A DNA stretch of 64,000 bases. Source: Styela clava. Its lineage: Eukaryota. The stretch's first letter is position 1, and every line of letters starts with the position of its first letter. Positions 1-48,151 of this stretch are shown in pieces. The position numbers and the translations under genes are program-made. The notes beneath the pieces were generated by a model, which did not search any database, was not told where the DNA came from, and saw nothing but the letters and a program-made list of their open reading frames with translations. The stretch lies in contig NC_135252.1 in the NCBI RefSeq assembly GCF_964204865.1, forward strand, positions 11,160,001 through 11,224,000, written 5' to 3'.

Positions 1-226
1 TTTGAAACGAAGTAAAAACTCAAACCAGAAGTTTAAGTTGAATAGCCTTGGCCAAATAACAAGTTACAGCTAATTTAATTATTCAAGGAATTTTCCGTTT
101 AATGTATTAGTAGAAACATTGTCATGATCTTGAATAGTCGAACGATGAAACCAAGATGTATGTGCCAAGTGCCATAGTGCATATATGCATGATGTAATCA
201 ATTTACATAAAAATATATCATCATAC

Positions 227-842
227 TTATTAGGCAAAAAAACGGGCTTTCGATTATGAAGAACAACTTCTTCATATGTTCCATTGAAAGTTCCATTTGG
301 TACAGGTGCTTTTCTGTAATAAATTGCAATATAGTTAAGTATTGTTGGATACCACATACCAATAGTACATTTTAATATGCGACATGGCAGGCAGTAAGAT
401 AATAATTCTTGGATAGAATTAGGTCCCGTTACCAGTAGTTAAAAGAGAAAAGGGCGACTTTGGTCCTGTAAACACGAACACAACAACAACTTAAAAAAAT
501 TGTACTCATACTTTATGTTAGAAATAATGAAATTCAAAAAGAAAAATTTTTTTTCGATTTTGTAAAATATTTGATTGTTGGTAAGGAAGTAAAGAAATTA
601 ATAATACGTGACTACCCTTCTTTGATATATGTCTAATTGTCTACAACTTACTCAACATTTCGCTTGTCAGCCGGTTCGTTTGTTTTCTGTCTGTAAATGG
701 AATATTGTTGTGAGTTACTTGTTTGTTCGATGAAGGTAACATGATGTTTATTTTTTGTTTTACCTTATATAGAAAAAATAATATGCAATTCAGATGACAG
801 CAATTAAAACAAACACTCCTATGACCGCGCCGGCTATGGGAC
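227..842 (-). pseudogene. Partial duplicate (A') of the TM and proximal cytoplasmic exons of receptor A; premature TGA in the TM exon; probably continues beyond the window start
   Basis: Bases 1-864 closely match 3142-3999. Exons 842-764 (GPIAGAVIGVFVLIAVI*; TGA at 790-792 where A has GGA), 690-652 (RQKTNEPADKRNVE) and 313-227 (KAPVPNGTFNGTYEEVVLHNRKPVFLPN) all have AG/GT boundaries. Confidence 0.75.
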
Positions 843-3800
843 CTACAAATATAAAAAAAAAATCAACATGGTATATAAATCGACTGGCTTAGATTCCGTT
901 TGAACTTTAGTAGGTTGAACATTGGGTTTATAGAGTCTTAAAAGATAACAATTCTAGAATCACAATTAGGGTTTTGTTTTTTATCAATTCTAAAAAAAAC
1001 ATCGTGTTTTAAATCAAATATTTTCTGTATTATTTGTATTTTTTATTGAAATACCCCCTGCATCGCCGCGAAACTACGCCAAAACGTTGCATTCTGGCAG
1101 ATGCACACGCAGCCGGAATTATAATTTCAAAATATAAGTAAAATTTTATAATTTGACTTTCGCTTCTATTGCGTACATTTATCGCCATGCTTGTATCTCC
1201 ACCAAAGTCATAAGATTATACCCGGAATGTTTAGCCGAGATATCAGAGAGACGTTTTGAGTAAGAAAAATTATGAAAATTAGCTCACGAGCCCACTACAA
1301 AAGCAATTAGATCAAGTGCAGCCCTCCGGCAAAACGAGTGGGTTGCGATAATGAAGAATATGCTCATATCGGCGGTAATCTACTAATATAAACGACGAGA
1401 CACCCTAGCGGCTAGGGTCACCATATTTAAAAAAGCAAAATTCCGGACAGTGCATGCTATTTTCATGACCTCGTAGTAAAAAATATGCGCACGGTACGAA
1501 ATAACAATGTTCTGTATTATCAGATTCCGGACATTTGAGCGTTTTTTAAATTCTTTCCGGACGCAAAATTTGACCCTAAATTCTGGACGGTATGGCAACC
1601 CTACCCTAGCTTAGCCTATGCTAATTGTAGGAGTCCTCGGATGCAAAGACGCCACAACTAATCTGTTATGACGCCTAAATATGGATTTCGAGTTCATGTA
1701 TTGACATTTTCCTCATAAAATGAGGGCATTATTACGGCTAATACTGTCCGGTTAATTTATGCTTAGCATGCTTTGTTTTCAAGGTTAAAGTGATGGAGCT
1801 TTTCAAGGTTATACGAACTCATTTATTCGATCGCATTTTCGCGATTTCAATTTTGGCAAGATGGTTTCGTCGCAACAGGCTCGTTCAATTAATGGCTTAT
1901 CGGTTGCGTCTTACTGCGCCAACCACTGAACTACAGCTTGAGAAGGTGTACATAAGCCTCTATCGATATTTGTGGCGTTTTGAAAGATTTATTGCAAATA
2001 AGAAGCGCTTGGCAAGTTTTTACGTCCATTTTTCTTCAACCTATTTAATACAAAAAAATCAAATAGTACAGCCATTTTGAACAAAAAAGGCATAAAAAAC
2101 TTGATTTAAAACAATTGTTTTAAAACAATTCTTTTTGAACAAATCCCTAATCACAATGCTTTGCTCTAGAATGTATTATGAATATCCATTTAACCTATCA
2201 TATAGCCTTTAGGAATTTAAAAATATAACAGTGAATGATACTTTCAACACTAACGATAAAATGCGAGAGATGTACACAGTGTCACCAGATGTAATGTTTG
2301 CAAAATTTATAAAATTATGCAAATTCGAAGATAAAATATTTAAGGTTCCGTTTGTTGTTTTGTTTATCAAATTTTTTAAAACGTAATCCATCAAAAACAA
2401 TCATAACTTATACCGTTATCGGTCAGTAAATGCCTATATCTGAATTATTTATATATTGATGTTTGCCCACGCGTAGGATGCTTCTTTGTCCTCTGGTGAT
2501 GATAGTTCATCCGCTTCATCAGCTTGATTGTGAACGGGTTGTAAATTCAGCTGTTGGTAGTTTGAATCATCAGGTATTTTATTTTTGTCCAATTCCCTAA
2601 AATACAAACAAATACAGTTTAAGAATCGTCGTCCAACGTATCCTGGCGATCCCGAAACACGATGTTTCTCACTAAACGTGTTTACTGAAATTTGATTCAT
2701 CTTTAGTAGTTCTTTTCAAATATTTCTGTGAAATGGCTCTGACAATTTGTGTTTTGAATAAAAACCAACAACTAGATTATTTAAATTAAAATTATTATTT
2801 TCAATTGATTCGTCATATTCAAGCAAGAATATGTTTTGTAAAATTGTTGCTTTATCTTGATAAACTGGCTAAAACAATTAATTTAGTAAAAGCAAATTTT
2901 GTGCCTAACCAAATTAGTTGTTAAATTACTATAATGGCCATATTTTGGTAGACGTTAGCTCACGCATAAAACATATCTTCGCCCTTTGACTGTTCATTGT
3001 CAACAGAAAATCCAGCAACGTCTTCAGCAGGCAAGAAACCATCATCATCAATTATTGCGTATTCGCTTCAGAATAAAAATAATCTGTTTTGTAAACCATA
3101 TTTGTATGTTCTTCTCCATTTGAGATATTGGTTAAGTGTTATTTGAAACGAAGTAAAAACTCAAACCAGAAGTTTGAGTTACCTTGGCCAAATAACAAGC
3201 TACAGCTAATTTAATTATTTAAGGAATTTTCCGTTTAACGTATTAGTAGAAACATTAAAATTGTCATGATTTTGAATAGTCGAACGATGAAACCAAGATG
3301 TATGTGCCAAGTGCCATAGTGCATATATGCATGATGTAATCAATTTACATAAAAATATATAATCGTACTTATTAGGCAAAATAACGGGCTTTCGATTATC
3401 AAGAACAACTTCTTCATATGTTCCATTGAAAGTTCCATTTGGTACAGGTGCTTTTCTGTAATAAATTGCAATGTTCAGTATTGTTGGATACCACATACCA
3501 ATAATACATTTTAATATGCGACATGGCAGGCAGTAAGATGAGAATTCTTGGATATAATTAGGTCCCGTTACCAGTGGTTAAAAGAGAAAAGGGCGACTTT
3601 TTGTCCCGTAAACACGAACACAACAACAACTTATGAAAATTGTACTCATACTTTATGTTAGAAATAATGAAATTCAAAATGAATTTTTTTTTTCGATTTT
3701 GTATAATATTCAATTGTTGGTAATGAAGTAAAGATAATTAATAATACGTGACTACCCTTCTTTGATATACGTCAAATTGTCTACAACTTACTCAACTTTT

Positions 3801-6800
3801 CGCTTTTCAGCCGGTTCATTTGTTTTCTGTCTGTAAATGAAATATTGTTGTGAGTTACTTGTTAGTTCGAGGAAGGTATCATGATGTTTGTTTTTTGTTT
3901 TACCTTTTATAGAAAAAATAAAATGCAATTCCGATGACAGCAAGTAAAACAAACACTCCTACGACTGCGCCGGCTATGGGACCTACAAATATAAAAATCG
4001 GTAAAATATATCAAAGTACTATATTTTAATCAGTATTATTTATCGTTCAGGAGGACCAAAAATGAACAATAAAAGGTATGAAAATAGAATGGAAACAGTA
4101 GCGTCTATTTTAAAATATTTTTTTTTACATCTGCAAGTCTTGTAACCAAGTTTATAAAATGAAGCATTTGAGTTTTTATGAATATGGAATTACATTTGTC
4201 TGAAGACATATAATAAATACCAACTATTGATAAAAAGAATTCTGATAAAATTGGTTTGCTCTGTTAGTTTTCAGAATATCGTTTCGCAGAACTATAGTTC
4301 CACAGAAAGACACACTGTTTTCGTTTATAAGAGTTAGCATTTACTTGATTGTACTTGTATACCTGAATGACTGACTCCTACTGTGGCTTTTTCATTACCT
4401 ATTTGCTATCCGCACAGAGAGAAACAACGTTGTTTAAAAATGTCATCATATAGGTCTCGATTACAAATTCTTGTTTACAAGTTGATGTAGTAAAAATGTA
4501 TATTCATATTCAAATTACAACCATCTCGATCATGATTCATTCACTACTATTGCGCATTATTTTTGTTTTGTTCATTAGCTCTGCGTACTTGTATCCATGT
4601 GCATGCATGATATACCCGTTTGATAGTTACCGGCATTGCTGGGTGAATTTTCCTTTGTTGGTGATATTGACTGCGTTATTTCGCTCAAATTCGGCTTATC
4701 GTTGGTTGCTGTAACAACAACATAATATTGAAACGATTGTTATGTCCACTACGTGTCCAAACAGACATAAAATAAAAATGGGACCATTGATACTAAAGAT
4801 CAGCATTTTCCAAACTTTTTTGGCCACGGAATACTTACGCTTTTTATCTCGCCTCGCGGAACACCAAAAATGAAAAGGTAAAATTGATAAAGAAAAATGG
4901 TGTATTGCAGCGGTCCCAAAAAGTGCGCTACTACAGTACTGTTGCCAAATGCGCCGCGAAAACTAACAAAAGTGTATTCAACATACCTAAAATATGATTG
5001 AATATTTGTGTATGTATGTCTGAAGAAGTCTGACCTTTGTCAGACGAAACGTTACAGGAAGATATTTGTGTTAGTGTGTAGCAAGACTCTTGAATCACTT
5101 AGGATTGTTATCTCTACTCTTGCTACAGCATCCTTGCAATATATGTCTACGGATCCACCGGCACAAAAGAATAGAAGAAGGATAAGTAGTTAGTCTCGCA
5201 GAAACCAAATAATCAGCGGATATTTTGCATATTGCATTCAAATGTTTATTGCTCCTTACTTTAAATGCTGTGTATCTGGATCAATAAATTCATTTTAACT
5301 TTCTTTGTCGTTTACTTTCTATTACGTAGTACGTAATACGTAGTACGTACTAGTACTTTGTTCAATTTTGCGAGCTGGAGTTTGTTTATCTGCTGAATCG
5401 AGTTTAGCGAACATGAGTGATTTTTTCATCATTTTCAAGTAAAATCAGGTAGAGCTTGAGAAAGAAGAGTTGACCTTTTGCATTTGTCCGCTTTAGGCCG
5501 ACCGTGACGCGATATTGAACGGTCGCTAGTTGTGCGACAACTTCACGATCCCGAGATAGCCATGGCGACCAATTTGGTTGTAATTTTGGTCCATTTGGAA
5601 GATGCTCGGGGAACACTAGTGTTACGCGGAACACAGTTTGGGAAACGCTGCTATAGATTATAGAAGGTAAATAGTAGATTATAAAATTAGTGAATGATTG
5701 GCTTCTGGCTATGAAACTAGCAACTGTATCTAACATATTTAAGACAGTGCGTAAACTTGAAATCTTTTAATAAATGGGTGGAATTTATATAAGTGCTAAC
5801 ACTTTTAACATTTAAATTAATACCTGCGTTTACTGTCGTCTCGGATATTGTTATTGGTATTGACGATGTCATTGATTCATCTATGTTAGCTGTTATAGAT
5901 ATTGTTCCCGTTTTCTCTACAATTTGTTGAACAGTACAATTCGGTGAAAAAAAAATATCCGTTCGCATTTAATATGATACAAAAAATAAAAATGTCAGAC
6001 GTCAAGGCATTTTGTATTTGCTTTTGTCAAATAACAATTTATAGTCCTTGTTCGTGGAATTATATTTCTGTCATAAAATATATCAGAAAAAAAAGATAAT
6101 AGGTTTTATCACTATTATTTTCCACGTATTTAGTTTTGCATTCTCAGTATAAATTATGAGTATTTAATAAAGTTATATGTAAAATTATGAAACATGCGTA
6201 ATATGTGATAAGCATGAAGATCTTGTGACCAAATATACATTTATATGCTATTTTATATACAGAACTATACCAAATATTATCAAAAAAGCCATTAACGTTA
6301 TCACTGATGACAAGTGCGATAGCCAAGGTAAGTGGGCTATTGAAACAATTATTATATTAAATTGAATTTCTGGTCGAATTCTGTTACCTGTAGTCGGCGG
6401 AGAACTTTCTTTAGTTGTTTCAACAGGTATTGTCGTTGTTTCTCGTGTTGTACTTCCATCTGTTGTGTACAGTATGTGTTTTATATTAATTTACACTTAT
6501 AAATTTGATGGGTTCAATATGGAGTCCGAATAAAATTATTCAGTTTCTTAATTTGATTCATCAAATAAGAATACATTTTTATGCAAATTCATTCTGAGTT
6601 TCGCCCCTGCTTTAGATGAATTCAATACACACCAAAGTTATTATTATATAGATATTCAGAGTTTTATGATAATTTCATCAATTTAATATTAATTTTGGAT
6701 GAGTACTGTGTTTCCCCGAAAATAAGACCTACCTGAAAATAGGACCTAGCATGAATTTTAAAAATATTTTTAATATAAGCCTCCCCTTAAAATAAGAGAC

Positions 6801-7884
6801 CAAGTCGATAGCGCAAAATTGTTTTTGACCTAGTCGATAACAAGAAATATTTCCCACTCGTTTTGACGGATTAATAATCTATGTTGTTTAGTAGTTATTT
6901 TAAATAAAAACGTGGTATTATAAGTAAATGGATATCGGTTTTCATATTTTGTATATTTGAAAATCTCGTAATTCTTTACTTTGTAATTTTGTTTTTGATA
7001 AATGGAGTTAAGGACATCCCCCGAAAATAGGCCCTAGCGTTATTTTTCGAAAGAAAATTGAAATAAGCCACTGTCTTATTTTCGGGTAAACACAGTATAG
7101 ATACTACTTGTAATATATGTCGAATTTGCCGTAGATGTTGTTGGTGTTACCGAGTAGGCTGTTGATGGGTCTGTTGTAACTTGCTGTGTAGTTGTATCTG
7201 CAAAAAAATCCATTACATAGCAGCGACAGATTATAATAGTATCTATAAAGATTAATCAGAAAAATTGGTATGTGGTAATTTTATTAATTTTTGCTGATTG
7301 AATTGAAAAAGTGTACAACGATTTATAAATCATTGCACAAAATTCCACCGAATAAAGAAATGCAATATAAATTTATCAAATAATACACATTATCTATTAT
7401 CATATTATGCTCTGATCTTGTTAGAATATAAAACGATTAGTCAATGGTTAATTGGCTATAGAACCCGCTAAAAAGATTTTAAAAGATATTTTTTTCATTT
7501 TCTTCTATCAAAACTTGAACATAAGGCTATTTTATTATTATTGAAAGAACTGTACCTACAAACTCAGTCGTAGGAATGTAAAGATCAAATTGCACTTTTT
7601 TCTATATTCTATACATTCGCAAGATTTCATGATAGATGTGCTATATTGTACAAATGAGAGATCATATCAAAAACAATAGGTAAGTAAAATTAGATTTTAC
7701 AATATTGAACTTGTGGAGGAGATTGGAGAGATTGAAGATTAAGGAGGAAGAGACCAACAACATCACGTTCAATAACATTATCCAAGCATGATTTGAAAAA
7801 TAGAAGATTCCTACCTGCACTGATATCCGCATTTATCAGCCAGCCACGACTAATCAATACGAAGATCAAAGATACAACAAACAT
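843..7884 (-). CDS. Receptor A: Ig-less mucin-like type-I membrane protein with multi-tyrosine cytoplasmic tail (~309 aa, 11 exons)
   Basis: Manual splice model: 7884-7815 (signal MFVVSLIFVLISRGWLINADISA); 7197-7108, 6459-6388, 5916-5824, 4708-4631 (Thr/Ser-rich); 3982-3904 (TM GPIAGAVVGVFVLLAVIGIAFYFFYKR); 3830-3792; 3455-3369 (GTYEEV); 3065-2964 (NEYAII..MFYA); 2596-2471 (EL..SNYQQL..ASYA); 936-843 (..DLYTML..*). Phases are consistent and the total is 930 nt. The donor at 7107 is weak and the 3' end is uncertain. Confidence 0.7.
967..2149. mobile_element. Non-autonomous hAT-like DNA transposon in the last intron of gene A
   Basis: Imperfect TIRs TAGGGTTTTGTT / AACAAATCCCTA; exact 8-bp TSD ATCACAAT at 959-966 and 2150-2157. 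Confidence 0.8.
1413..1603. mobile_element. Short MITE nested inside the hAT-like element
   Basis: TIRs TAGGGTCACCATA / TATGGCAACCCTA with internal CCGGAC repeats; no clean TSD. Confidence 0.65.
4801..5650. mobile_element. Non-autonomous hAT-like element in a gene A intron
   Basis: TIRs CAGCATTTTCCAAACT / AGTTTGGGAAACGCTG; flanks CTAAAGAT / CTATAGAT (7 of 8 match). The paralogous gene B intron (~13153) has the empty site CTATAGA. Confidence 0.8.
5010..5208. repeat. Interspersed repeat, second copy at ~34290-34445
   Basis: Shared TGTATGTCTGAAGAA...ATATTTGTGTTAGTGTG...GCTACAGCATCCTTGCA...TTAGTCTCGCAGAAACCAAA. Confidence 0.75.
6706..7095. mobile_element. Tc1/mariner(pogo)-type MITE
   Basis: TIRs CTGTGTTTCCCCGAAAATAAGAC / GTCTTATTTTCGGGTAAACACAG flanked by TA on both sides, with internal GAAAATA(A/G)G sub-repeats. 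Confidence 0.8.
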
Positions 7885-9379: not shown

Positions 9380-12300
9380 TCACTCGTCATTCTCAACGAA
9401 ACTATTAATGTCTCCACTTTTCTTTGATTTGTTTACCCTGGTGAAATGTTGATAAGATATCAGATAATTCATTTTAAGTATCTGTAGATTTTTTATAATA
9501 CCATTCTGAATATATAGGGATATTTGACTTGGCACCGAAGTGCCGATAAATATCAGATATTTATTATTCACTTCAAATCAGTATTTGTATTGAAGTTCAC
9601 TATCGTTCAGACGTTAATTTTCAAATGCTAAAAGTGTAGCAGTGTATAAAAATCTCTGAAAGTGACATTCCGCGATCACAGCAAAGAAAGCGATACTATT
9701 GACTATACATGTCTGGTTCGGCTCAAGATGACCATGTTATAATATGTCTATAATATAGATATCAATTTAATACTTACATGGTATATAAACCGACTGGCTT
9801 AGATTCCGTTTGAACTTCAGTAGGTTGAACATCGGGTTTATAAAGTCTTAAAAGAAAACAATTCCATTTTTTATCAAATATTTAGAATTTGCCAAACACT
9901 ATGCCCATGTATTTCCTTATATATATAAAGATCAGTGGTATTACAAACGATGTTTTTTGTGAAATTGATGAATACAGAGATAATGGATCATCTGTTTCCT
10001 CTTTCCCTGTTACCTTCTCGAGTAAGCGTTACAATAGGTTGACCTACTGGCAGAATTGTCTGAACAGACTTCCTGGCGGTGTCATGTACAGGTTATCAAG
10101 CTCTATATGCGGAAATTTCATGACGTAGTACGTACTACGCGTTGGTTGGTAGTTCAACGCAAATTGTGTTAAATATATGCAATTATTGCATCGTATGATA
10201 CAAGTACTAAAGCCTATATTCGTGCCTTGCAACTGATAAAAGTTTCTGTCCGCTCACAACGATTGAAAAATTAACAAGATACTCTGGCTGTCCATTTGTT
10301 ATGAAATGAAGACGGTTGAACTATATGTTGTGTACTTCAGGGTTTAGAAACTCGTTTATTTATTTTCTGTTATCACCTGTTATAAAGTACTTCGTCATCC
10401 GGATTTTCTGGCTCAGCTTGCGTATGAACGGATTGTAGATTCAACTGTTGATACTCTGTATCGTCGACGTTACTATTTTGATTCAATACTCTAAAACATA
10501 TTTAGGTTATGGGTTCGAAATAAAAATGAGTGTAGAATTTTAATTCTGAAAGCCAATGTTTTGCTTTTAAATGTGTTATGAAAATTCATTTACCTTATAC
10601 TATAACCTTCAAGAATCTGATAATATAATAAGTTATGAAGCAGAAGTAATTAGCCCTAATGATAAAGTATGAGAGACACACACAGTCTTACCGGCTATAA
10701 TATTGGCAAATTATATACAATTGTGCAATTGCAAAGATAAAATATTTAGGTTCCGTTTGTTGTTTTATTTATCACATTTTTTAAAAACACAACCTATCAA
10801 AAGCAATGTTTAAATAAACCGTTATCAATCAGTAATTGCCTATATCTGAATTATTTATATATAGATGTTTGCCCACGCGTATGATGCTTCTTTGTCCTCT
10901 GGTGATGATGGTTCATCCGCTTCATCAGCTTGATTGTGAACGGGTTGTAAATTCAGCTGTTGGTAGTTTGAATCATCAGGTATTTTATTTTTGTCCAATT
11001 CCCTAAAATGCAAATAAATACAGTTCAGGAAGTGTCCAAAGTATCCTGGCGATCCCGAAACACGATGTTTCTCACTAAACTTGTTTATGAAAATTGGATT
11101 CAACTTTAGTAGTTCTTTTCAAATATTTGTGTGCAATGGCTCCGAACAGTTTATGTTTTGAATGAAAACCACCAATTAGTTTATTTAAATTAAAATTATT
11201 CTTCAAATTATTATTTAAATAGATTAGTCATATTCAAGCAAGAATATGTTTCGTGAAATTGCGTTTGGGCAAAATTCCTATAAAACCGCACGGAAGTGAA
11301 ATTAAAATATGCATCACTGTTTTAGTGCTTCATCTCGATATACTGGCTAAAAACAATTGAGTAAAAGCAATTTTTTTGTACATAACCAAATCAGTTGGTA
11401 AATTACTATAATGGTCATATTTTGGTAGACGTTAGCTCACGCATAGAACATATCCTCGTCCTTTGACTGTTCATTGTCAACAGAAAATCCAGCAACGTCT
11501 CCAGCAGGCACGTAACCATTATCATCAATTGAGGCATATTCGCTTTAGAATAAAAATAATTTATGTTTGTAAAATCATATTTGTATGCTATATTTAAAGT
11601 ATTTATGAATCGCTATTTGAAACGAAGTAAAAACTCAAACCAGAAGTTTAGGTGGAATTACGTCGGCCAAATAAGTTAGGCTAATTTAATTATAGGAATT
11701 TGTCGTTTGATGTACTATATTATTGAAAACGATGAAACCAAAACGTATATGCCAATACTATATTATATACTAACCAAAAAGACCTAATTTGAATTATTCA
11801 CAGAAATATATATCATCATACTTGTTGGTCAACACAACGGGCCTTCGATTATCAAGAACAACTTCCTCATATGGGTCATTGAAATTTCCATTCGGTACAG
11901 GTGCTTTTCTGTAAACATTAACAATAAAAATAAATTAGAATTAGGAATTCCAGCACTCTATAACAATACATTCTCAATATCCATTAGGACAGAGTTTAGA
12001 ACACAAATACACAAATATATGGACAAGAAGTTTTGTGTATAGGCTACAACCTAGTAAACAGTGATTAAAAAAGCCGACTTAGGAAAACGGAACATAGCAT
12101 TCCTTCAAATTTAAATAGAGATATTCATTTTGATTTTGTAAAATATTTGATTACTGGTTATGAAGTAAAGATAATTAATAGTATGCTACTACCATTCTTT
12201 AATATATGTCACTTGTCAACAACTTACTCGACATGTCGCTTGTCAGCCGGTTTGTTTGTTTTCTGCCTGCAAATGAAATATTGTTGTAAATTACTTGTTA

Positions 12301-14726
12301 TTTTGTGGATTGTATCGTGATCTTTATTTTTTTTTTACCTTTTATAGAAAAAATAAAATACTATTCCGATGACAGCAATTAAAACAAACACTCCAACGAC
12401 TGCGCCGGCTATGGGACCTACAAATAAAAATAAAAATAAAATCGTTAAATATATGGTAGTAATGATTTTAATCGGTATTATTTATCGTTCAGAAGGACCA
12501 AAATGAATAAAAAAGTTTCCATTCAAAAATATTGCTTTCTACACATGCATGCTTTGAGTCTCATGATCACGTTTATAAAGTGAATTATCTGAGTTTTTAT
12601 GAATACGCAATTACATTTTTCTAAAGTCACATCATAAACAACAACTACTATTAGAAAGAATTGTTGTAAAATTGGATTGCACTATTAGTTTTTGAAATAC
12701 CATTTGCAGACTTATACAAAAATACGCATTGTTTGCCAATATAAGGGTCAGCTATGTATTCTCAACTTTAGCATTTTCATTACATATTTGCTATCTACTC
12801 AGAAAGAAACAACGTTGTTTAAAAATTTCATCATATAGGTCTCGATTCCAAATTCTTGTTCAAAAGGTGATGTAGTAAAAATGTATATTCATATTCAAAT
12901 TACAACCATCTCAATCATGATTCATTCACTGCTATTGCACAACATTTTTCTATTAACTCTACATATTTGTATACATGTACATGCATGATATTCTTGTTTA
13001 CTAATTACCGGCATTATTGGGTGAATTTCCCATAGTTGATGGTATTGTCTGCGTTGTTTTGCCCAGATCGTTGGTTGCTGTGGAAATTCATGAACTGTAA
13101 ATTGGCTCATTATATAAATAAAAATGAAAAATAAAAAAATGGAACCTTTGATACTATAGAAAGTAAATTCTAGATTATGAAATTAGTAAATAATTGTGGC
13201 TTATAGATGCATGTTGTGAAACTAGCAATTGTATCTGACATGTTTATGACACTGCGTAAACTTCACAAAATGGATATGTTTTTGCTAACACTTCTCACAT
13301 TTAAATTAATACCTTCGTTTACTGTCGTCCCAGATGTTGTTATTGGTATTGACCATTTACTTGTTTCATATGTGTTAGTTGTTATAGATATTGTTCCCGT
13401 TTTATCTACAATTTATTGAACATTGGAAATGTATTGATTCAGTGGAAAAATTATTTGTTTGCATTTAATATGGTACAAAAAATAAAAATATCAAACGTCA
13501 AGGCATTTCGTGTTTGCTTTTGTCAAATAACATTTTATAGTCCCGACTCCTGGTTTGTGGAATTATATTTCTGTCATAGAATATATATATCAGTAAAAAA
13601 GATATTAAATTATATCACTATTAATTTGCAAATAATTAATTTTATATTGTCTATATAAATCATATGTGTTCATACCGCTGGTGTGTTCTGTTGACGGAGA
13701 AGATGTTGGATTACACTCCGGTACCGTTGATGTACTGGGTGTACTTGATGAAGCTGTTTGTTTGAATATAAAAAGAAGTTGTTAAAGAAAGGTTCTCGAT
13801 AAAATAGTCATGTAAAATATAGCGTTTGACCTGGCTATGTTAGCGTAGTATGTTGAAAATTTCAGCTGAAACCCTATCCCTATCACCTATCGTGGGGTAT
13901 AATAAAATAGGTAGGCAAGGCACAAGCGAGATACTTTCTTCAATTCTTTTTGAAAAGTGGCACTTTAAGTATCAGTGACATTCAGGAATTTGTTCGGAAA
14001 GAAAATGTGAAAACGTATCATGACAAGATATTATAGGCTTTAGATTCCCTTAATTATTATTTCTGTTTTTAATTTTTACAATCTTACGTTTAAATATAAG
14101 TTTCAATTGCCTAATCTAAGTCATTTGATGGTTTTCGAGCTCTGAGATAAAAATAAAAAAAATCCTAATATTCAATCAAAGTACAAAATATGTTAAATTA
14201 ACTGAGAATTAGACATAAATTGTTTGTTTTGATGAAACGTGATTTTCATATTTAAAGAATTCACACCAGACTTACCTATTACGCATACTAGTAAATCTCT
14301 CTCTCCATAGTTTGAAGATGTATTGACTTTACATGAATATTCACCGGAATCTGTCAATGCTACATGCTTAGGAAAATATATTCCCCCGTTGGTTTGATAA
14401 ACAGAACAGGACTGACTTTTGCTAACTTCGACATTATCTTTCCACCAACTTATTGATGATGTTGATGAGGAATATGAACACCTTATGGAATTGGAATTTG
14501 TATCGAAGTTGTCGGTATCCAATTTGAAATAGTCGGTATTCGGATTAAAAGTAATATCTGTTATAAGATAAAACGAATGTTGTTGATCACTATAGCACAG
14601 AAGACACATAGGTCAAAATATTTGCAACTTACCGCCACTGATATCATCTGAATATATTTCCGAAAACAAATGAAAACCAATTAATAAGATGATTATGTTC
14701 AATGAATTATTGGCGTACTTCAACAT
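9380..14726 (-). CDS. Receptor B: signal peptide - single Ig domain - Ser/Thr stalk - TM - long tail with ITIM/ITSM-like tyrosine motifs (~429 aa, 13 exons)
   Basis: Exons 14726-14633 (signal); 14557-14276 (Ig: C..SWWK..DSGEYSC); 13753-13676, 13405-13313, 13077-13009 (stalk); 12417-12339 (TM GPIAGAVVGVFVLIAVIGIVFYFFYKR); 12266-12228, 11908-11822, 11542-11441, 11002-10877, 10490-10377, 9846-9778, 9437-9380 (tail). All introns are GT-AG and the 1290 nt are in frame. Motifs: DPYEEV, NEYASI, MFYAEL, SNYQQL, ASYAVL, TEYQQL, VLYNRL, GLYTMV. Confidence 0.85.
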
Positions 14727-20014: not shown

Positions 20015-23000
20015 CTAAGCGTTTTCATACTCATAAATAATTTTCTCCTGGTTTTTGTTCAAGCTGCGAAAACATAAACGTAACATAGTAAAGAACGGTT
20101 TCGAAACAACCAAATTAATTGATCTTTTTTCTTACTTTTCATAATACGGTGGCCGTTCGGAGATATTTGGATTGTGTGTAATATATGCACTAGGTTCATA
20201 CCCGTCTTCTTCGATGACATTTGAATATGTTCTAGAATGATTTTGGTTGAAAATTAGTTCACTATAAAATTATATTTGACGTCAAATGTTTTTGATAATG
20301 TAGAAGATATCTTATTCAGACACCTGCAAGATATCTTATTCAGACATCTTGTTTGCTTGTTATGATTTAGTCTAGAAAATTATTGTGTTTATCAAACTGC
20401 AGTTCGCGAAAATGCCGTTTGAGTGTGCATCCACGATTGAGATACATGTTTTCAAGTGGTTTAGATTTTGTTCCTAAAAATAATTAATGTATAAATTTTA
20501 CCTATTGCCCTCTGAGGTATTATTGGACGCAGTTGGTGGATTAGACGAAATCTCGTGATAATGTAGGGATTCCTCAAGCACAACATCCGATTCAGGAACA
20601 TTTTTCGGTGATCTATATTGAAATTAAATAATTAGATTCAAAATTGAACTGACTTTAGCATTATTATTTTGTATAAACTACACGCCTTATTAACAGTTTC
20701 AGTGTGATTAACTAAACTAAACAGCGATTGAAAGAACATTTCGATTTTTTGTTCTAACATCATCAAAATTCAGAAATAAAAGATACATACTCTTAACATT
20801 GTATCTCTGGAGTAAAATTATATAACATTTGTTTTTGCTATTGTAACTTATTTGATTGCTGGCAATGAATTAAAAATAAACAACTGTTTGTTGCTATTAT
20901 CTTTCATGCCTAATCATCAATAACTAACTCACACGACGTTCCGTTCCGTGGGTTCGTTTGTTTTCCTTCATGACAATAAAATATTATTGTGAAATAAAAG
21001 TTACTTACAGAAATGTACCGTGATCTAAATTTTTTGTTTTACCTTTTATGGAAATAAAATACAATTCCGATGATGGCAATCAACACCACTACTCCTACGG
21101 CTGCGCCTGCTATGAGGCCTGCAGATATAAAAGTATATTGAATATTTGAAGAACAATATTTTAAATGGTATTACTTACCAAGCAGAAAGCAGCGGTATCA
21201 AACATTTAAAGCACGACATGTTAATATCACGAATGGTCACAAAAATTGCTGAAAACATCGCCCTTGGTTATTGTGCGATTCTTTTACAACCATCTCGGCC
21301 GAGGTGATTTTCTAACATTCAATATTATTTCACACCATTTTTTATCAGCTCCACATACATGAACATATATGCATATACACACATTCGGTAATTACCGGTA
21401 TTGTTGGGTAAATTTTCTGTTGTTGATTTTATTTTCTGCGTTGTTTCGCTCAGATTCGTCTTGCTTGTTTCTGTGGAAAATAAAAATCTCTGATTGTCTA
21501 AATATATATATATATATACGACGAATGGAAAATGGGACCATCGATTAATTAAAAATGCTTCTCGAATGCCTGTTTTGTATTATTTTTACAATTTTACCCT
21601 TGGAAGAAACCAAATAACATCGACCTAAATGCAGTATATTATTTTAATTTTAAATTGTTATGAATATATTCACCAAGAAGTGAGAACGGCGAGTCTTAGT
21701 TTATCACTTATCGATCTCGATAAGTATGTTGATAGGTATTTGTCTGTCTGTTTGTTTGTCTGTTAGATGCACGCGATATCTCACAAAAGCAAAGTTGGAT
21801 CTACTCCAAATTTTGCATGTGCATTCATCATATCCCGGACCAGAAGTCTATTGATTTTGGAAGATTTATGTCATATAATTAGCAGTTATTCATTAATTAG
21901 TGATGGAACACACGATGTCGCTAAGGAGTGAGAGTGGATTAATCGAAACTGCAGTTTCTGTTTTGGGGGATCCCCTAACTTTCGATCGATAAGTTTTCGG
22001 TCTCCGACCGATATTCTCGTTTTATAATTGGCTCATTAATGATTACTGCAAAACTTGGAATTGTACTCGTACAAGTTTTTCCAACGCGTAGACAAGGGCT
22101 CTTCAACCTGGAGGTCTCGACCGATCGGGGGGCCACAAAAGGAATCAATGGGAGTCGCGGTGATATATTTGTTGCACTAACTCATGTTGAAAAAAAATTT
22201 CCATCAAGTTTTAAAGATTTGTAACCTGTACTGAGAGGCACCAAGACATGATTAGATTTTTTGTGCGAAAATAAATAAGCAAGCCTGTCTCATCAAAAGC
22301 ATTGTCAGTTTTTTCAATATTTTCTGTATTATTAAATTTCACTTCATTTTTAACTTTGTTCCTGGCGGTCGCGAAAAATTTGGCCGCGCCGAGTGGATCG
22401 TGATGAAAAAAGTTTGAAAACACTGGCTTAGACAAAAATCTCTTTTAACAATCGGTTGATATTTATGTCCTGACAGACACAATTGGAATTCGAATACATA
22501 CCTGCATTCACTGTCGTTATGGTTATTGACGATCTTGTCGTTTCATTCACGTCTTTGAAAGGAGTAGATGTTGGATTACAAGCTGGGACCGTGGATGAAG
22601 ACGGTGTACTTGCTGAAGCTGTATGTTTGCATGCAAGAAAACAATTCAATTCGCTAAAGAATATTCTCAGGTCAATAGTTAGTATTGGAATATGGCGTTG
22701 GACTTGGCCATGTAGGCGTCGTATGTTTACGGGTCGAAATCCAATCCACCTCATCAGAATATGATAAATAGGGTAGACAATACGGATCCGAAAAGCTTCC
22801 AACCTTTCTTAAAATGCTGCTCTTTGCATATCAGTGACGCCTAACCAGATAGAATGGATTAAAATATTAACATAACATTATATTAAATATATCGATAAGA
22901 AGATAAAATTAGACACCTGCTATTAGTTCAATGAAATTAGAGCAAAAACTATATATATATATATATATATAGATGATTAGTTAACCGGAAGAACTCATAT

Positions 23001-23815
23001 TTCCCAATACAAAACAAAATGTATCTGAGGATGGCCTCCAGCGTTTTTATACAAACTCTGATAAATATATATTACTGATGACGTTGAAAATATTTTAGAA
23101 TTTACCTATAATGCATACTAATAAATTTTTCTCTCCAAGGTTAGAAGATGCATTGACTTTACATGAATAATCACCGGAATCTGTCAGTGCTACATGTCCA
23201 GGAAAATATATTCTCCCGTTGACTTGATAAGCAGAATCGAACTGACGTCCGCTAACTTCGACACTGCCTTTCCACCAGCTTATTGAGGTTGATGAGGAAT
23301 ATGAACATATTACGGAATTGTGGTTTATATCGAAGTTGTCGATATCCAACTCGAGATAGTCGCTATCCGGATGGAATAGAATATCTGATTATAAACATGT
23401 TGAGTTGCAATTTAGCACAGATAATTTCAAAATTTTGTTATCATGTTTCAACAAACTTCATTCTACGTGGGAGATATTTTTGCAATGTTGGTTTGGGGCT
23501 CAGAATTGTGTGTAAGCCAATACAAAGAATAAAACTCATCATATGTAAGGAACTCACATTAAGTACGTTACCGATCTTAATAAAGCACATAAGATGAATT
23601 GTCCCTCATATTTTTTTATATTTCAGTTAGTCACTTTTACATTCTGAGCGAAACGGTTTAATTTTGATAAAATAAAGGAAAAGAATCCATGGGGACATTC
23701 ATGTAAATTGTGTACAGTACTTGCCTCCACTTATATCAGCGCAATTTGTATCCGAATGAGTAAAAATGAAATATAAGATAACAGCACATGAACCTATGTT
23801 CTTTTGCTTCCACAT
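20015..23815 (-). CDS. Receptor C: signal peptide - single Ig domain - Ser/Thr stalk - TM - tail with one ITIM-like and three YxN motifs (~308 aa, 9 coding exons)
   Basis: Exons 23815-23725 (signal; GC donor GCAAGT); 23384-23106 (Ig: C..SWWK..DSGDYSC); 22618-22502; 21470-21396; 21118-21043 (TM GLIAGAAVGVVVLIAIIGIVFYFHKR); 20965-20933; 20612-20502 (LHYHEI); 20231-20136 (TYSNV, GYEPS, PYYE); 20063-20015 (NL..IIYEYENA*). 927 nt in frame. Possible 3'UTR exon from 19380 with AATAAA near 19320. Confidence 0.85.
21670..22021. mobile_element. Helentron-associated (HINE/DINE-1-like) interspersed element
   Basis: Internal (TGTC/TGTT)n microsatellite, TTATCGATC / GATCGATAA subterminal inverted repeat, 3' hairpin TCGGTCTCCGACCGA followed by a T-run. 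Confidence 0.55.
22093..22425. mobile_element. Degenerate hAT-like MITE
   Basis: Ends CAAGGGCTCTTCAACCT / AGTTTGAAAACACTG with subterminal GGTCGCG-like motifs. Confidence 0.5.
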
Positions 23816-28438: not shown

Positions 28439-31400
28439 ATGAAAATATCGGGAACTCAGTTAGGATTTTTATTAGTCGCCATCTTGCTCAAAAGCAATGC
28501 GGTTTCTGCATTAGGTAAGTACTAGGAATCTTAACTTAGACAGGAATAAAGTTTCCTATCAATTGACGAAGTCCTAGTAAAGCGAATGCACAATATGTGC
28601 TGAATTTTTGAAGCACTCCGATAGAACTTCGTAATCGTTTTGATCAAATGAGCTTGACGTTATCTCGTCTGCGTACAGTTTCCAACATTGACCAAGCCAT
28701 AAATAAGTATTTTGCGTGATGAATGCCAGTTTTTCAGTTAGATGTAGAATTAGAGCAACCGTAATACTTTGATATACATCTAGTGATAATTTTCAAAACA
28801 CTCTTAAGAAAACTTACAAATCCCAGATTACAGTTATAATACAAGAGACGAGATTTTCTATTATTTCAAATTGAAACTGTTTATAAAAGCATTTTTTATT
28901 TATAATGTTCTGTGTTCAATTTGTGCCGAATTATGTTCTTTTAATGAATTAAATTTTGTCAACATGGACAAACCCCCTATAAAAAATACGTGCTGTTGAA
29001 AGTCTTGACAAATTTTGAATAATATTACTAAAAATGTTTACTATTCTTCATATATAAAAATTTCATTTATATATTTGTCTGAATGCTCCATCCAAACACA
29101 GGCAAACGTCGTAATAGTTGGTAAAGATTGCCCCTAATAAAACCCATCCTAGTCAATCAGCAACCCCATATAAAAAACTCCATTACTTTATACCTTATTT
29201 GGTTTATTCATTCATGTAGAAATACTTGCATCCCGTGATTTAAACTAAATATTTATTTTCCGCCTCCACAACTAATTTTCACAAATGCAATATTTGCTTA
29301 CATCACACACGTGGCGTGCCAAACACCGATTATGTGAATAGTTATAATCCCATATCTTGTTTGCTAATAAAAATCGATGAGCTGTCACTAATGAATAAAT
29401 TAAATCTGTAAATAGGCACGAAACTATTGGTTGAAAAACAATAGAATGCGGGTAATCCTAAAGTATGCGCACCAAGATGTCGCACAACCTGAACCCTAAC
29501 CTGGTACACAACCTGAATTCAGGTTGTGCGCCATCTTGGTGCGCATACTTCAGGAGGTCCAGAATGCGAATATATCCACATTGAAAATGGAATTGCGCAA
29601 TCATGTACATTTTGTAAATATCCTCTATAACCGACTCAGTGGCAGAAACAGCTAACTTGATTGATTAATACTTTAAATATTAAAGTTCTAGATTGGTTTA
29701 AATCAAATTTAATCATAAACTTATATCTCTGAACTGGTTCTCAATATTAATATAACAATTACGCGATTTACAACAAGCAATTGTAGTTATTCGCAATATT
29801 GAAAATGGTTTATTTAATAATTTGATAGATTTTTATTTTTGCTAGAATAAACTTTATATAAATCACCTCATATACAACAAACAGCAACTTCAGTAGAAAG
29901 CGTGACCTGGAAGTGCTTTATTACACGTAAAATAGACCACAATATGCTCTTAAAATCAAATACATAATAATTCTTCTGTTGTGCAAAAATACACAATACA
30001 AAGAAGCAGGGCGCAAATTCAGGAAAGTTACTAAAATTTCAAATGAGGTTTAAAACATGACACATACTCCGTTGGGCAATCTCATTTAGGGACATATGGT
30101 ACGAAGAAAATCTCAATGAGATACTTTGTATTTGGGCTTCAAATTTGTGAGGATAATTAAAATACGCAGCTATAAGAGAAATGAGTGAAGGTTTATCAAT
30201 TTCATTTTGTAGTCTCGATCGAGGCGCCAGTAGAAGAGTATTGGGGAGTGCGTGATGATGCCGAACTCCAAATCCAGGCCAATGTAACCACAGACGTCGA
30301 TTGGGGTAATGTAACAGTAACAGTGAAAACTCCTGACAACAGAGCATTTCCAGCAAACACTGAAGATGGTACGGATTCTACATCAAGGCTTTACACTTAC
30401 GCCATCAAATCATTATTTATAGCAGATGCTGGCGTGTATACATTCACAGTGGAAGATTCATCTACCGGAGAGACAGATAATGCAACAGTTACTGTATACA
30501 GTGAGTAAAAGCTTTCTTCCTAAACTTCCTAAGATAATGCAGGATAAGCTTAAATTGGCCTACTAAAAATCTCAACAGTGACACCGGATGAACCACATAT
30601 TATTTTATCAAGCCTAATTATATATTAACAATAAACACGTAACATAAAACACTGAAACCATCTTATACTAATCACTTATTCCTTTTGTTACTTGCTTCAT
30701 GATATTTCGACTTGTTCTATATACAGTATACACCGTTGACGTGTTACCAATATCAGCTAGTCATCACGTTGTCGATGGTCAAAGCAGACTTAAACCTCTG
30801 CTGATACCGATATATGTCTCAACCGATGGAGACTGGGGCAATGTCGATGTAACTTCAATGACCCCAAGTGGAGATTCATCTTCGACGAGCTTCATCGAAA
30901 CAAGTTTTCCATTTATGAGATTATATCAAGTGAACGTTGATGATGCGGAACCTGGGATTTACAATGTATCAGTAAATGAAATTTTAGGAGGACGGGAGTA
31001 TGCACTTTTTTCAACATCAGAAGTACAAGTGTATGGTAAGTAATGTTTTATTTAAGTATTCTATATTTTGGAATAAGTAGCCTATATACATATCGCGTTT
31101 AATGACAATTTTAGTCTGGTTTTTTCTAATTAAACAATAAACTCCTTCTTGGCTGTCCAGTAGAAAATTATAATTCAAAAAGAAAAATTTTAGGAAGTAT
31201 AAGATTTTGAAACCGAAAAGAAAAAAATATGCGAAATGCATTAGTATAAGAGAATTCGTTGCAAAGCTTCTTAAATGTAATTGATCCAAAATATATCACT
31301 TTAAAACTAAATCACTTTAAATATAAATACACCAACAAAACCTCGCCAAGAAAAATTTCAAATGTCGTTGGTTATTTTAATTTAGAGGCAACATCGCCAG

Positions 31401-34400
31401 ACGAATATTTGTACAGAATAGCTGAAAACAGAGTCAATATATTGAGCACCGTTCCCGATTTTCATCAATATTGGTACGATGGGCCAGATGACACCTATAT
31501 ATTGGACGGTGGTAATGATATGTATGACAGGGGAAATTATGTAAGATATTTTCATAAGTTTTTTAGTCTGATTATTTGTTTGTTTTACAAGTAGTATCTG
31601 CGCATATCAGAGGCTGATTTTATATCTACATTCTTGCTCTGACGAAAGTGTGTACCACCTATAAAGTTATTAGCATTCGTACTGTATATAATTCTACAGT
31701 TTGTGTCGATTTCCTGTTGAACACTTTGTAAATTTGTTCCAATGTATGTAATAATGTGGTATTTTCCAATGTTTGTTGAAAGCTTGGCGAAAGTAACTGA
31801 CCTGAAAAATCGCAAAATGCATTAATTAATTATTAATTCCAACGTGTTCAACAGTATATTTACTTCCAATAAATTGTTGTGCAATAATTTATTGCTTTAC
31901 AAAGTGTGTGAATCCATAAAGCACCCGCGCCATGCATAATGAGATGTTAACGTTTTTTGATCAGCAGTTACTGTGATTCGATAATTTCTATGATCTATGG
32001 GAAACGAGCCAAAAATTGTCTGACATTGAAAAATATTGACACAGATGCGATAATAACATTTTTTAAACTGCATTATCTTATTGGTTGAGTCCACTATATT
32101 TGTTTTCTAAACGAAATATAATATTCAGTGCGATATACTGATCACTGCCGTTAATATATTATTTGAACATGTACTTAAGAATGGCTAGTTGGTGGTAGAG
32201 CAAACACTTGCTAATCGATATTGGAATGCTTTTTTGCAATCATTATCCCAGTATGATTTGACAGGATTCATCCCATGTCCAGCAATTTCATCAACAAACA
32301 CACCGGACGGTCAATAACGTATAGTTATCAAGCGTGATATTAATCAACGACGCAAATTAAAATTTACAAAGGAATCACAAAGTAACTTTCTGTTGCGAAA
32401 TTATTTATCGTTTTCAGCAAAAATTGTTTACCACCATAAACCTTTGTTCAGATCACCATATCATCGGGCAACTCTGTCACTTCAAACGTGCCGTATGGAA
32501 AACCATTTACGTAAGCTTGTGAAATAACTCATAAAATGGGTATGGTAACCAATCCATTCCCGCGTCGCAGATTTTGTTTTTTATCTATGCTATGCATTAC
32601 CATAATCTGTTGCCCGTATTTAGCAAACATATCGAAATTAATGTTATAGCGTCTGTATTTATATAAATATATGTTGTCACGCCATTTCATTCCACTTTAT
32701 TCCTCACAATTTCTACCTAGATAAATGACTCAGTTTACACCAAGTGAAACCATTTAATAAATACATGTCAATAATCGAGGTGATGTATTTCATCGCAGTT
32801 GATTTTATGGCAACATCTCTATTGTAAGTTTATCGGGCGCTCCATAAGTGTGTGTACCAATATGGAGGTAACTAATTTTGTTCGCCTACTTTACATCAAG
32901 TTGTGTAAAGGGACCGAAGCCTATGTGGACAGTGAGTATATTGACTTGGCTAACACAGACAGTCCCTGAACTCGTAATAGAACTAAAATAAGGAAAATAG
33001 GAATAAAAGTATGGCTTAACCTGGTACACACACTACCGTTTATTGTACTGTTTGGCGTAGAAATTAATTCTTAATTACATTATAACATTTGATTTAGTTG
33101 TTTTGTTGAGAATTGCAGAACTTTGACTTATTAGTACATTTTAATCAATAGAACTCCATCGTACCTATTTTCATCAAAAACAACGTATCCGTTCACATCA
33201 CTAATGTGGATTTCAAATGTCAATGGAGTCGAGGATATGTTTTCAATGAAGGTAGATAAAAGTTCTACTTCGAACTTTGTTGACTTTTGAGTCAGTTATT
33301 TAAATGTATAAACTGTCCAACATGCCCATTGGGCCTAAAATACCTGGGTACGACATTCGCGCTAGACGATAGCCTCAAACTTGCACTTTCAATCTCTACC
33401 CTATCAAAAAGTATTCAATAGGGAATATTAAATATCCACCTGTGACCATACAATGTGTATTGTGGGACATAACTCTTTACATTTGCATACAGGTATCAGG
33501 TAAAACAGGTGCGTTTGGCACCGGGATGACTTCACAATTCAGTTCGTCGTTTACACATTCGGGGTACAATGTTTGGTATAAAACGTTTCAAGTTTACGAT
33601 GCTTCTCCTGATCCAAGTATCTGCGAAGTTTATTTCTACGTCACAAACGAAGAGGTAGGAATTTCACCACGTTTTTTGCTTATTCTCACCGCGTTTTTGT
33701 GTTAGTGCTGTAAGCTAACCTTATATGAAGAATACACTCCTGTCAAAGATAGTAAGAGATCTGTTGGAAAATGGTGTATAGAAAGCTATTGCCGTAAATT
33801 TTTTTTTATCTTTACAGCTTTGGGCTTCCGTTCCTCCAACGTCTGTCAACCTTACAGTGGCCAGTGCCTCGACTATAAACTTGGATAACACCTTTAGTGT
33901 ATCAGGAGGACCACAAAACATTATGATCGGATATCTACTACTTTCCAAGTAAATGCCACGATTCTTTTATTTTAATATTTTTCATGGTGAGATTTATCAA
34001 TTTTAGCTGATTTATAATTCATAGATAATTTACTAATTCTAACATTCAGTCCAAATATCACAGTTCTTATGGTAACGAGACACTGCAGTCAGAAGTCAAT
34101 CCTGTAATGCATAAAATAACAAGCGTGATAGAGGAGAAAGATGGTATGTATGTGTATAAGGTATAAAAATTCGTAGTACTCATTTGAATAAGCTATTTTG
34201 ATTGCAAATTGGATACATGTAGCAAGAGTAAAAATAACTATCGCAGGTGATTCAGTCTTGCTGCACACTAACACACGGGTAGTTGAACTATGTATGTCTG
34301 AAGAAATATATTTGTGTTAGTGTGCAACAACACTCTTGAATCACTAGGGATACGGTAGTTATCTTTACTCTCGCTACAGCATCCTTGCATTATATGAATA

Positions 34401-47059: not shown

Positions 47060-48151
47060 TCAAGAGTTTTTCACTAAAGTAGGCATATTTATAATAGTAG
47101 TAATTTTTATATGTGTTTCAGCTATAGTTTGTATATTCTCTCCTCTTTCAACGTTACTTATCGTGCTTTGGTTTCTGTAGTGCCATGGAAAAATTGTTCT
47201 TTTCCATTCCGGAAAAGATAATATTACCATGATCAAGTTAACAAATAAACTCAGTTGCATGAACAGAGGCAAAGTTATTCCGTCATTCAACACGGACGAT
47301 GCTGCCATTGAGCTTCCAATGACATCAGTAACTGCACACCCAGTGGATGTCAATAATGCTCTTTTTATAACTGGATTAAGATCTCTGTTAAGATTTCGAT
47401 TTGGTGTAGCTTTGTTATTCTCAATCATAGCACCCTTTTTCATTGTTGTGTAATGTTTGTACAACGGAAGTACAAAAAGACTGAGCAGAATCCCTTGCAT
47501 GAGTAAAGATATAGTACCGTTCATGATCCACACCACATGTGCTGGAAACGTGGAATGTATAATCGCACACCCTGAATCGACGACGCCAAAGGAATATGCC
47601 GTTACATATATTAAGTATGTCGATAACGGAGAAACGACAACTAGTACAGCAACAGCTATGCTCAAGATTCTTGTACACGGATTGGTTAAATGTTGTAATG
47701 CTGGGTTGGCGTAAATTGACCTTTGACGAAACCACATTGCTGCATAGGCGAATGTCGAAGAAAAGCTTCCACCCGTTCCTCTCATAACTCTAATTTGTCG
47801 ACATATACTAGGAACGTATATATCCACTAAAATCTTCTCTATTATCGGGCAGTTGATCATAACGCATATAGTTAACATGAATCTTGCAGCTTTCATACAC
47901 GTTCCTAACTTTTTTGCAGTTTTCTCTCTGCATTCAGTTTTGATCGTAGTTCCAGTACATAAATCAATTAAAAGAACAATCAAAATATAGCAACTCAAAA
48001 TCAATGTTGTTCCCGAAACTATGACGATCTTTAGCCAATTTTCCCACAACTGATTCGTTTTCCATATATTTCTTGTCGTAAAATATTCACCGGTGGCGCC
48101 AACTGTAGAATTTTGTACAGCACATGGTGTTGTCGTGTTGTAGTCTTCCAT
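47060..48151 (-). CDS. Intronless 7TM (GPCR-like) orphan receptor, 363 aa
   Basis: About seven hydrophobic segments, N-terminal N-glycosylation sites (NTT, NST), Cys at the top of TM3 (PSIC) and in ECL2 (DSGC). Clear paralog of 55370-56398. Confidence 0.88.
   Translation of the reverse strand: MEDYNTTTPCAVQNSTVGATGEYFTTRNIWKTNQLWENWLKIVIVSGTTLILSCYILIVLLIDLCTGTTIKTECREKTAKKLGTCMKAARFMLTICVMINCPIIEKILVDIYVPSICRQIRVMRGTGGSFSSTFAYAAMWFRQRSIYANPALQHLTNPCTRILSIAVAVLVVVSPLSTYLIYVTAYSFGVVDSGCAIIHSTFPAHVVWIMNGTISLLMQGILLSLFVLPLYKHYTTMKKGAMIENNKATPNRNLNRDLNPVIKRALLTSTGCAVTDVIGSSMAASSVLNDGITLPLFMQLSLFVNLIMVILSFPEWKRTIFPWHYRNQSTISNVERGENIQTIAETHIKITTIINMPTLVKNS

Follow-up and report, generated by a model that had tools for sequence, protein, structure and literature searches.

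The question raised by this locus is how genes with related Ig domains come to carry different tyrosine motifs in their tails, and in which direction each product would signal. The stretch analysed here is a window of 64,000 nucleotides from the ascidian Styela clava, located on G000:C3 of a 377-Mb genome. The region examined came to 294 kb; in its flanks, of 200 kb on one side and 30 kb on the opposite one, the scan covered long ORFs and homologs of the tails.

A tandem family of receptor-like genes

Genes A, B and C are a genuine tandem family at one locus, all on the minus strand. Together with gene D they span 33 kb, and gene E lies 67 kb off; strong P0001 matches in the genome search were confined to this locus. 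RefSeq carries B as LOC120341785, C as LOC144420837, A as LOC144421113 and D as LOC120341788, all "uncharacterized". Exon models rebuilt from the window agree with RefSeq in every residue for the C and A proteins, and for the B protein after adjustment of one stalk exon. The features are as follows, in window coordinates unless an L handle is given.

1..936, minus: orphan T5 exon (from 936), then a second TM (in-frame TGA), juxtamembrane exon and T1; the tail is B-like and continues beyond the window, where its two ITAM-like units are found
2446..7884, minus: gene A, which lacks an Ig exon; signal peptide, four S/T exons and TM, with a B-like tail holding a single ITAM-like unit
9380..10384, minus: gene B ITIM VLYNRL (T4/T5 junction), YTMV and last exon
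10377..10881, minus: second ITAM-like unit of gene B, EAS-YAVL-x10-YQQL, spanning T3 and T4, the latter duplicated from T3
10954..11908, minus: gene B tail from T1 through T2 into the first part of T3, with YEEV, YASI and ITAM-like unit 1, DMF-YAEL-x10-YQQL, across the T2/T3 junction
12228..13753, minus: gene B stalk, TM (12417-12339) and juxtamembrane (12266-12228) exons
14276..14726, minus: gene B signal and Ig exons (14726-14633, 14557-14276); Ig the same in another assembly and an RNA contig
20015..20063, minus: gene C terminal exon T3; YENL-x10-YENA-stop, a degenerate copy of B's ITAM-like unit
20064..20135, minus: gene C predicted intron, GT-AG and 72 nt long; splicing it out yields YENL and YENA
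20136..20231, minus: gene C tail exon T2; YSNV (20227), EEDGYEPS and start of YENL; read-through gives YYEK-stop (RefSeq form)
20502..20612, minus: gene C tail exon T1; ITIM LHYHEI (Tyr codon 20560)
20933..20965, minus: gene C predicted 33-nt juxtamembrane exon, skipped by RefSeq; flanking introns 77/320 nt versus 72/319 nt in B
21043..21118, minus: gene C TM exon, core uncharged, 21/26 identical to B
21396..22618, minus: gene C two S/T-rich stalk exons (22618-22502, 21470-21396), rebuilt model
23106..23384, minus: gene C Ig exon, I-set-like; a contig of another sample differs at 25/279 nt
23725..23815, minus: gene C signal-peptide exon, with GC-AG first intron; the exon model rebuilds the RefSeq protein exactly
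L004:1000-4830, minus: gene D; an Ig and a stalk, a neutral TM, and an acidic tail of 49 aa that is free of tyrosine
L010:1330-2600, minus: gene E; B-like TM (19/27) and tail (42%) after sushi exons (L009-L010) and S/T exons

Contigs of run X1 omit the first intron in both B and C, so both genes were spliced and present in one sample; none of the contig-bearing samples is annotated as RNA. The first intron of C is GC-AG (window 23724), and its 23725-to-23384 join is seen in an RNA contig (run X1, record 6). Exon 10377-10490 of B is covered by contig X9 record 23, with extra letters on both sides.

An exon series in phase 2 is common to B, A, C and E, with tyrosines at matching positions. The B-type tail module is also found on the Ig-less gene A and on E, probably a sushi-repeat gene, whose sushi-to-TM join is deduced from exon order. 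The TM cores of A, B, C, D and E contain no charged residue, which bears out what an earlier note had stated for the first three. From the Ig to the juxtamembrane exon, B and C consist of segments 66-83% identical, with several alignable introns. Their tail exons are 50-60% alike at the DNA level, which is not above shuffles (z 1.3-2.2); homology of the two tails is argued from exon number, phase, intron lengths (72/77, 319/320 and 279/270 nt) and tyrosine positions. Measured against B's tail, E's is 42% identical in amino acids and C's 27% (weakly above chance at the protein level, P about 0.02), and since E's tail is nearer to B's than C's is, the genes are best described as mosaics. The general picture first drawn of this locus, a clustered family with related Ig and TM halves in B and C, divergent tyrosine tails and uncharged TMs, is supported.

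The 5′ part of gene A resembles that of D (signal peptide 20/23), with the Ig-bearing stretch missing. A second A-type TM-to-tail block occupies window 764-842 (minus strand) and extends some 2,300 bases beyond the window (L004); it is 93-94% identical, and its tail is intact despite the TGA in the TM. Because all tail introns are in phase 2, gene A could splice into this duplicate tail, giving a longer or doubled tail. The block is possibly a haplotype-specific duplication. In the other assembly, the model of gene D is without a TM, and D is a candidate decoy or partner chain.

Searches beyond the locus set the limits of the family. A genome search with C's Ig matched C, B and D only. In phmmer, 110 matches were obtained at E<=0.001, nine of which were inspected one by one. 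Three at E<=1e-30 plus P0017 are this cluster; the remainder align to the Ig or to the stalk/TM part, and in none of them does the best stretch go past residue 267. A tail-profile search gave four matches among 229 candidates, all from S. clava. Full-length relatives outside S. clava were found neither by phmmer, across 1.84 billion representatives, nor by the tail profile, and gene E's protein is absent from both sets of results. Literature searches, largely outside the subscription journals, had no publication about this S. clava cluster among the results listed.

The Ig domains of B and C, described in the earlier note as near-identical, share 66 of 93 residues (71%); D stands at 43%, and A has no Ig exon. 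The hallmarks of the fold are present (B-strand Cys, C-strand Trp, F-strand DxGxYxC), and B matches Pfam Ig_2 at E=1e-6. A model of the domain (pLDDT 84.8) matches I-set structures in a flat ranking, led by Sidekick-2 (Z 11.3, rmsd 2.2, 86 aligned) and NCAM (Z 10.9). Matches in the fold search were generic I-set domains, with no CD3-like chain among the matches listed. That adhesion molecules rank best is what would be expected of a non-immune family of mucin-stalk adhesion or developmental receptors, I-set like NCAM and Sidekick, whose tyrosine motifs would serve trafficking or growth signalling. This account is nevertheless very improbable: rapid duplication, exon shuffling, a stop-bearing copy, Ig-less and tyrosine-less members, and no detectable full-length relative outside the species would all be traits of an immune cluster.

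The Ig of B is unchanged in three samples (0/94 aa in the other assembly, 0/282 nt in the RNA contig), and its tail differs at 19/197 aa. The C-like contig from another sample, with 25/279 nt different in the Ig exon, could represent either an allele or a paralog that the assembly lacks. Ten of its 12 listed differences are non-synonymous, which equals the neutral expectation (P=1.0), and positive selection on C's Ig is not supported by these 12. The synonymous difference between the Ig exons of B and C, 0.215, is near that of the alignable introns (73-76% identity), giving no clear sign of gene conversion; a comparison of the synonymous difference in Ig and TM gives a borderline result (P 0.04-0.07). 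The C-like contig was rejected as evidence for conversion: 7 of its 12 listed differences are B's letter, but about half would be expected with B as outgroup.

Tyrosine motifs in the tails

The tail of B is indeed rich in YxxL/I/V, as had been claimed: 8 of its 10 tyrosines fit Yxx[ILV], against 1.66 expected, a count that 0/20,000 shuffles reached. SNYQQL, TEYQQL and VLYNRL had been read as ITIM or ITSM motifs. All three are present, VLYNRL across an intron, but SNYQQL and TEYQQL each make up the latter half of a [DE]xxYxxL-x10-YxxL unit, of which the tail has two. An acidic residue at -3 is an extension of the ITAM consensus, and a YxxL such as YQQL can also act as an endocytic signal. The units fit the broad consensus YxxL/I-x6-12-YxxL/I given in the available passages of PMC9052152 and bioRxiv 2022.03.25.485889, of which B has two, A has one and the duplicate tail has two, with none in C or E; two matches in B's tail arise in about 1 of 10,000 shuffles. 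With the narrower spacer of x6-9, used in the accessible part of PMC9546547, no B unit fits, the spacer being 10 in every unit. Exons T3 and T4 are about 50% identical, and the second unit derives from exon duplication.

Conservation of these units can be followed across versions of the tail. The junctions that form them occur in RefSeq proteins of two assemblies, and the tail protein from the other assembly retains both units. In B, the other-assembly B and the duplicate tail, versions that are not independent, all 16 Tyr and Tyr+3 positions are invariant against 43/197 varying positions (P=0.025). The ITIM pattern [ILV]xYxx[ILV] is fitted by LHYHEI in C and VLYNRL in B, neither count being above chance (P=0.17-0.28 for the single one in C). 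B's strict ITIM and its two motifs readable as ITIM/ITSM-like count against an activating reading of that tail.

The motifs of gene C depend in part on how the tail is spliced. LHYHEI, YSNV, YENL and YENA had all been listed for it, and all are in the sequence, YENL at 20143-20060 (spanning the intron) and YENA with its stop at 20029-20015. The RefSeq protein, XP_077966649.1, reads through the donor at 20135 and ends in YYEK-stop, and so lacks YENL and YENA; two of the three YxN sites therefore require the predicted 72-nt splice. The splice signals are good, with donor AAA/GTAAGA and an acceptor pyrimidine fraction of 0.71 versus 0.53-0.76 in 13 reference acceptors, and the intron is in phase 2, like all other tail introns. 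In the paralog E, YASM-x10-YENV is in register with C's YENL-x10-YENA (a probability of about 0.002 from composition at one fixed site, which was selected after the fact). The splice is accordingly a prediction backed by good splice sites and a paralog. The contig matches listed (32 of 7,093 pieces; 15 of 50 joint rows, filled by high-copy repeats) held no RNA support for the 20135-20064 join. RefSeq A terminates by a read-through of the same kind, so such endings are perhaps low-coverage models or perhaps real intron retention. C's copy of the ITAM-like unit has lost both its final Leu and the acid at -3.

The contrast once drawn between the two tails, with C rich in YxN and B without it, is less sharp than it appeared. 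YxN occurs at 3 of C's 8 tyrosines, with 1.17 expected, an excess that is not significant (P=0.09, 20,000 shuffles). B does have YxN at 0 of 10 tyrosines, but the absence is not beyond chance (P=0.30), and the comparison of C with B gives Fisher P=0.069. The word YEN occurs twice in C (P=0.013), but was picked after being seen. Nor is there a clean split between YxN in C and YxxI/L/V in B, as 3 of C's 8 tyrosines fit Yxx[ILV] and two of these are the YxN sites YSNV and YENL. Judged from sequence, the earlier note's YxN-versus-ITIM contrast is weak and its polarity probably reversed.

Gene E has three lenient ITIMs, SEYATI, SYYADI and SKYEDI (P=0.003), as well as YASM-x10-YENV. The latter is intermediate between B and C, and is one of several features that would suit tails with no opposition between them. 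By this account, the tails would be a diverged multi-tyrosine docking or sorting scaffold, with B, A, C and E signalling in the same direction or using YxxL as an endocytic signal, and C a shorter, older form possibly ending in YYEK-stop. The phase-2 exon series with matching tyrosines in B, A, C and E, the truncated RefSeq C, and an Ig identity of 71% with no clear conversion are all consistent with it. Even so, the account is doubtful, given that the ITAM-like unit is duplicated and intact in B and A-type tails and lost in C, that B's Ig is invariant and C's apparently variable, and that D is without any tyrosine.

Signalling polarity and likeness to known receptors

Readers for such motifs were sought in the same genome. 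The SH2 search gave 50 matches, 30 of which were retrieved, and a Syk/ZAP-70-type and an SHP2-like sequence were identified from these. The former, a two-SH2 Tyr kinase on G000:C5 (24.186 Mb) with a 624-aa ORF, has SYK (E=4e-98) and ZAP-70 (E=1e-96) as its best natural matches, the chain in the top row being labelled EGFR. Its gene (L040:262-2133, minus strand) is a single 624-codon open frame and apparently intronless. The SHP2-like gene, recognised by an SH2 exon, is at C8:10.92 Mb. A Grb2 orthologue was not pinned down in this search, where a 52-aa SH2 fragment matched SHP2 first and Grb2 as the best single-SH2 match.

The reading favoured here, tentatively and at somewhat less than even confidence, is a paired-receptor-like family of reversed polarity, in which B would activate through its two ITAM-like units and C would dampen or redirect. 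The family would be built from exchangeable exon blocks encoding single-pass receptors. Once ligand had clustered B, a Src-family kinase would phosphorylate both units, and a Syk-type kinase would dock on them (and also on A, whose tail comes without an Ig) and activate. C would bind a related ligand, and the signal would be dampened by SHP docking via LHYHEI and Grb2-SHIP docking via YxN. A would serve as an ITAM-like chain that has no Ig, with D acting as decoy or partner. Since the activating motif would be within the receptor's own tail, a DAP12-type adaptor would be dispensable. Botryllus couples ITIMs to polymorphic receptors, and hemITAM or core motifs to monomorphic ones (PMC12582321, in the sections available); by analogy, the constant ectodomain of B may go with activation and the variable one of C with its ITIM.

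The earlier note had assigned the opposite roles, B being inhibitory with YxxL sites that recruit SHP2/SHIP, and C activating via Grb2/Gads on YSNV, YENL and YENA. Several observations can be cited for this: B has the strict ITIM VLYNRL, the lenient SNYQQL, and TEYQQL, without fitting an ITAM of x6-9 spacing; the predicted splice would give C three YxN sites; Botryllus expresses Grb2, GADS, SHP-1 and SHIP (PMC12582321, same sections); and Hydractinia Alr tails are equally ambiguous between ITAM and ITIM in what is available of bioRxiv 2022.03.25.485889. It is unlikely all the same, as SNYQQL and TEYQQL each lie exactly 10 residues after an acid-preceded YxxL, twice over, with key residues invariant. 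Moreover, C carries a strict ITIM and an insignificant YxN excess, and an ITIM with a Grb2-binding ITT-like motif, the combination found in C, is inhibitory in TIGIT as described in the accessible portion of PMC8981293. With two ITAM-like units in B and that combination in C, the assignment is not supported.

A further scheme would make B and C a proto-TCR pair. B's units would recruit Syk, and C's YSNV/YENL/YENA tail would be a receptor-borne stand-in for LAT, retention of the 72-nt intron switching C between ITIM-only and Grb2-scaffold forms, with the same tail cassette shuffled onto Ig, Ig-less and sushi ectodomains. According to the available text of PMC12582321, ascidian genomes have neither LAT nor SLP-76, and FcoR has no YxNM motif, which lends C's YEN sites some interest; the scheme as a whole is nonetheless distinctly unlikely.

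The favoured reading, with B activating and C dampening, can be compared with several known systems. One is the vertebrate paired receptors (KIR, LILR, PILR, CD300, Siglec-5/14), which by the definition in PMC3533184 are likewise small clusters with related ectodomains, divergent tails and an ITIM member. The S. clava cluster differs in having no short-tailed member with a charged TM, D's 49-aa tyrosine-free tail following a neutral one. It differs also in the mixed motifs of B and C, an Ig identity of 71% and a single I-set-like Ig on a mucin stalk, and the likeness is one of organisation. The genes are not filed as classical paired receptors (PMC3533184) because, although they are clustered and include an ITIM, ectodomain conservation is moderate, a charged-TM member is absent, and opposite function is a prediction.

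Another comparison is with receptor pairs that work without an adaptor. FcgammaRIIA/IIB is such a pair, with the activating motif in the receptor's own tail and a neutral TM, and the S. clava cluster may, by analogy, work in the same way. CEACAM1/CEACAM3 are also alike in having an activating ITAM-like motif in the receptor's own tail and a neutral TM (PMC5112662, from its available passages). B differs from both pairs in its two units, 10-residue spacer and exon duplication, and the likeness is one of layout.

Gene C has parallels of its own. The BTLA tail is laid out as an ITIM plus Grb2-type YxN site(s), and the Ig domains of TIGIT and BTLA are V-set, as opposed to I-set-like in gene C. Feature look-alikes in the ESM Atlas, at 0.88-0.91, include BTLA (0.88), KSHV K1 and adenovirus E3, which are leads only. 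TIGIT resembles C in its one Ig, TM, and tail with ITIM and Grb2-type YxN (PMC8981293, accessible portion); the resemblance is one of layout, and ligands of TIGIT are known.

Among invertebrates, one comparison is with Botryllus FcoR, which the sections available of PMC12582321 and PMC12065747 describe as clustered type I IgSF receptors, likewise of a styelid ascidian, with ITIM, hemITAM and core YxxI/L/V motifs, tails altered by intron retention, and tyrosine-less relatives nearby. In those same sections, FcoR is Ig-sushi-Ig-Ig and 520-610 aa long, whereas S. clava B, C and D have one Ig and a stalk, A none, and E sushi repeats. FcoR also has hemITAMs in contrast to the two-tyrosine units of B, and S. 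clava is solitary. The hemITAM pattern [ED]3xYxxL has no match in B, A, E or RefSeq C, the EEDGYEPS of C being without the Leu, and no phmmer match was recognisable as FcoR. Identity of the S. clava family with FcoR is excluded by the differences in architecture and hemITAM. The Hydractinia Alr family likewise comprises clustered invertebrate Ig receptors with ITAM/ITIM tails, a likeness of organisation (PMC9546547, accessible part). Finally, a Halocynthia haemocyte glycoprotein, also ascidian, has two ITAMs and is tyrosine-phosphorylated, and is likened to B by description only (PMC5465252, in the text available).

Because clustered ITAM/ITIM Ig receptors of invertebrates were already known, the S. 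clava cluster is new only as a lineage-specific variant. If the favoured reading is true, a solitary tunicate would have assembled, through the shuffling of exons compatible in phase, a small set of its own receptors with activating, dampening, decoy and adaptor-like roles, and complete two-tyrosine ITAM-like units would serve without a DAP12-type chain. Moreover, the ITAM/ITIM logic of Botryllus and Hydractinia would then hold for one more, unrelated family of receptors, in the group that is sister to the vertebrates. One genome supplies both the tails and native Syk, SHP2 and Grb2-type SH2 domains, which would allow a cheap test of this reading.

Other genes in the neighbourhood

A six-Ig gene (L005:1700-9050, minus strand) has domains 18-28% identical to those of B and C, apparently with a TM and a very short tail at its end; a mariner-like transposase ORF, recognised by eye (L005:5283-5948), lies inside one of its introns. 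A large mosaic gene is present three times in tandem in L006-L009 and L013-L018; it combines numerous sushi repeats with Ig, lectin-like and FN3 exons, and one of the copies also has a TM exon. Within the window, 30185-43659 (plus strand) holds a multi-exon gene of repeated Ig-like exons, with weak I-set/V-set matches in 2 of the 11 ORFs scanned and one further domain in two copies (31250-31594 and 37398-37763). Two intronless paralogous membrane ORFs at 47060-48181 and 55370-56419 (both minus strand) are identical at 144/322 positions, with five strong hydrophobic segments each. The pair has no Pfam match, and the first no useful PDB match; by eye, these multi-pass proteins are GPCR-like.
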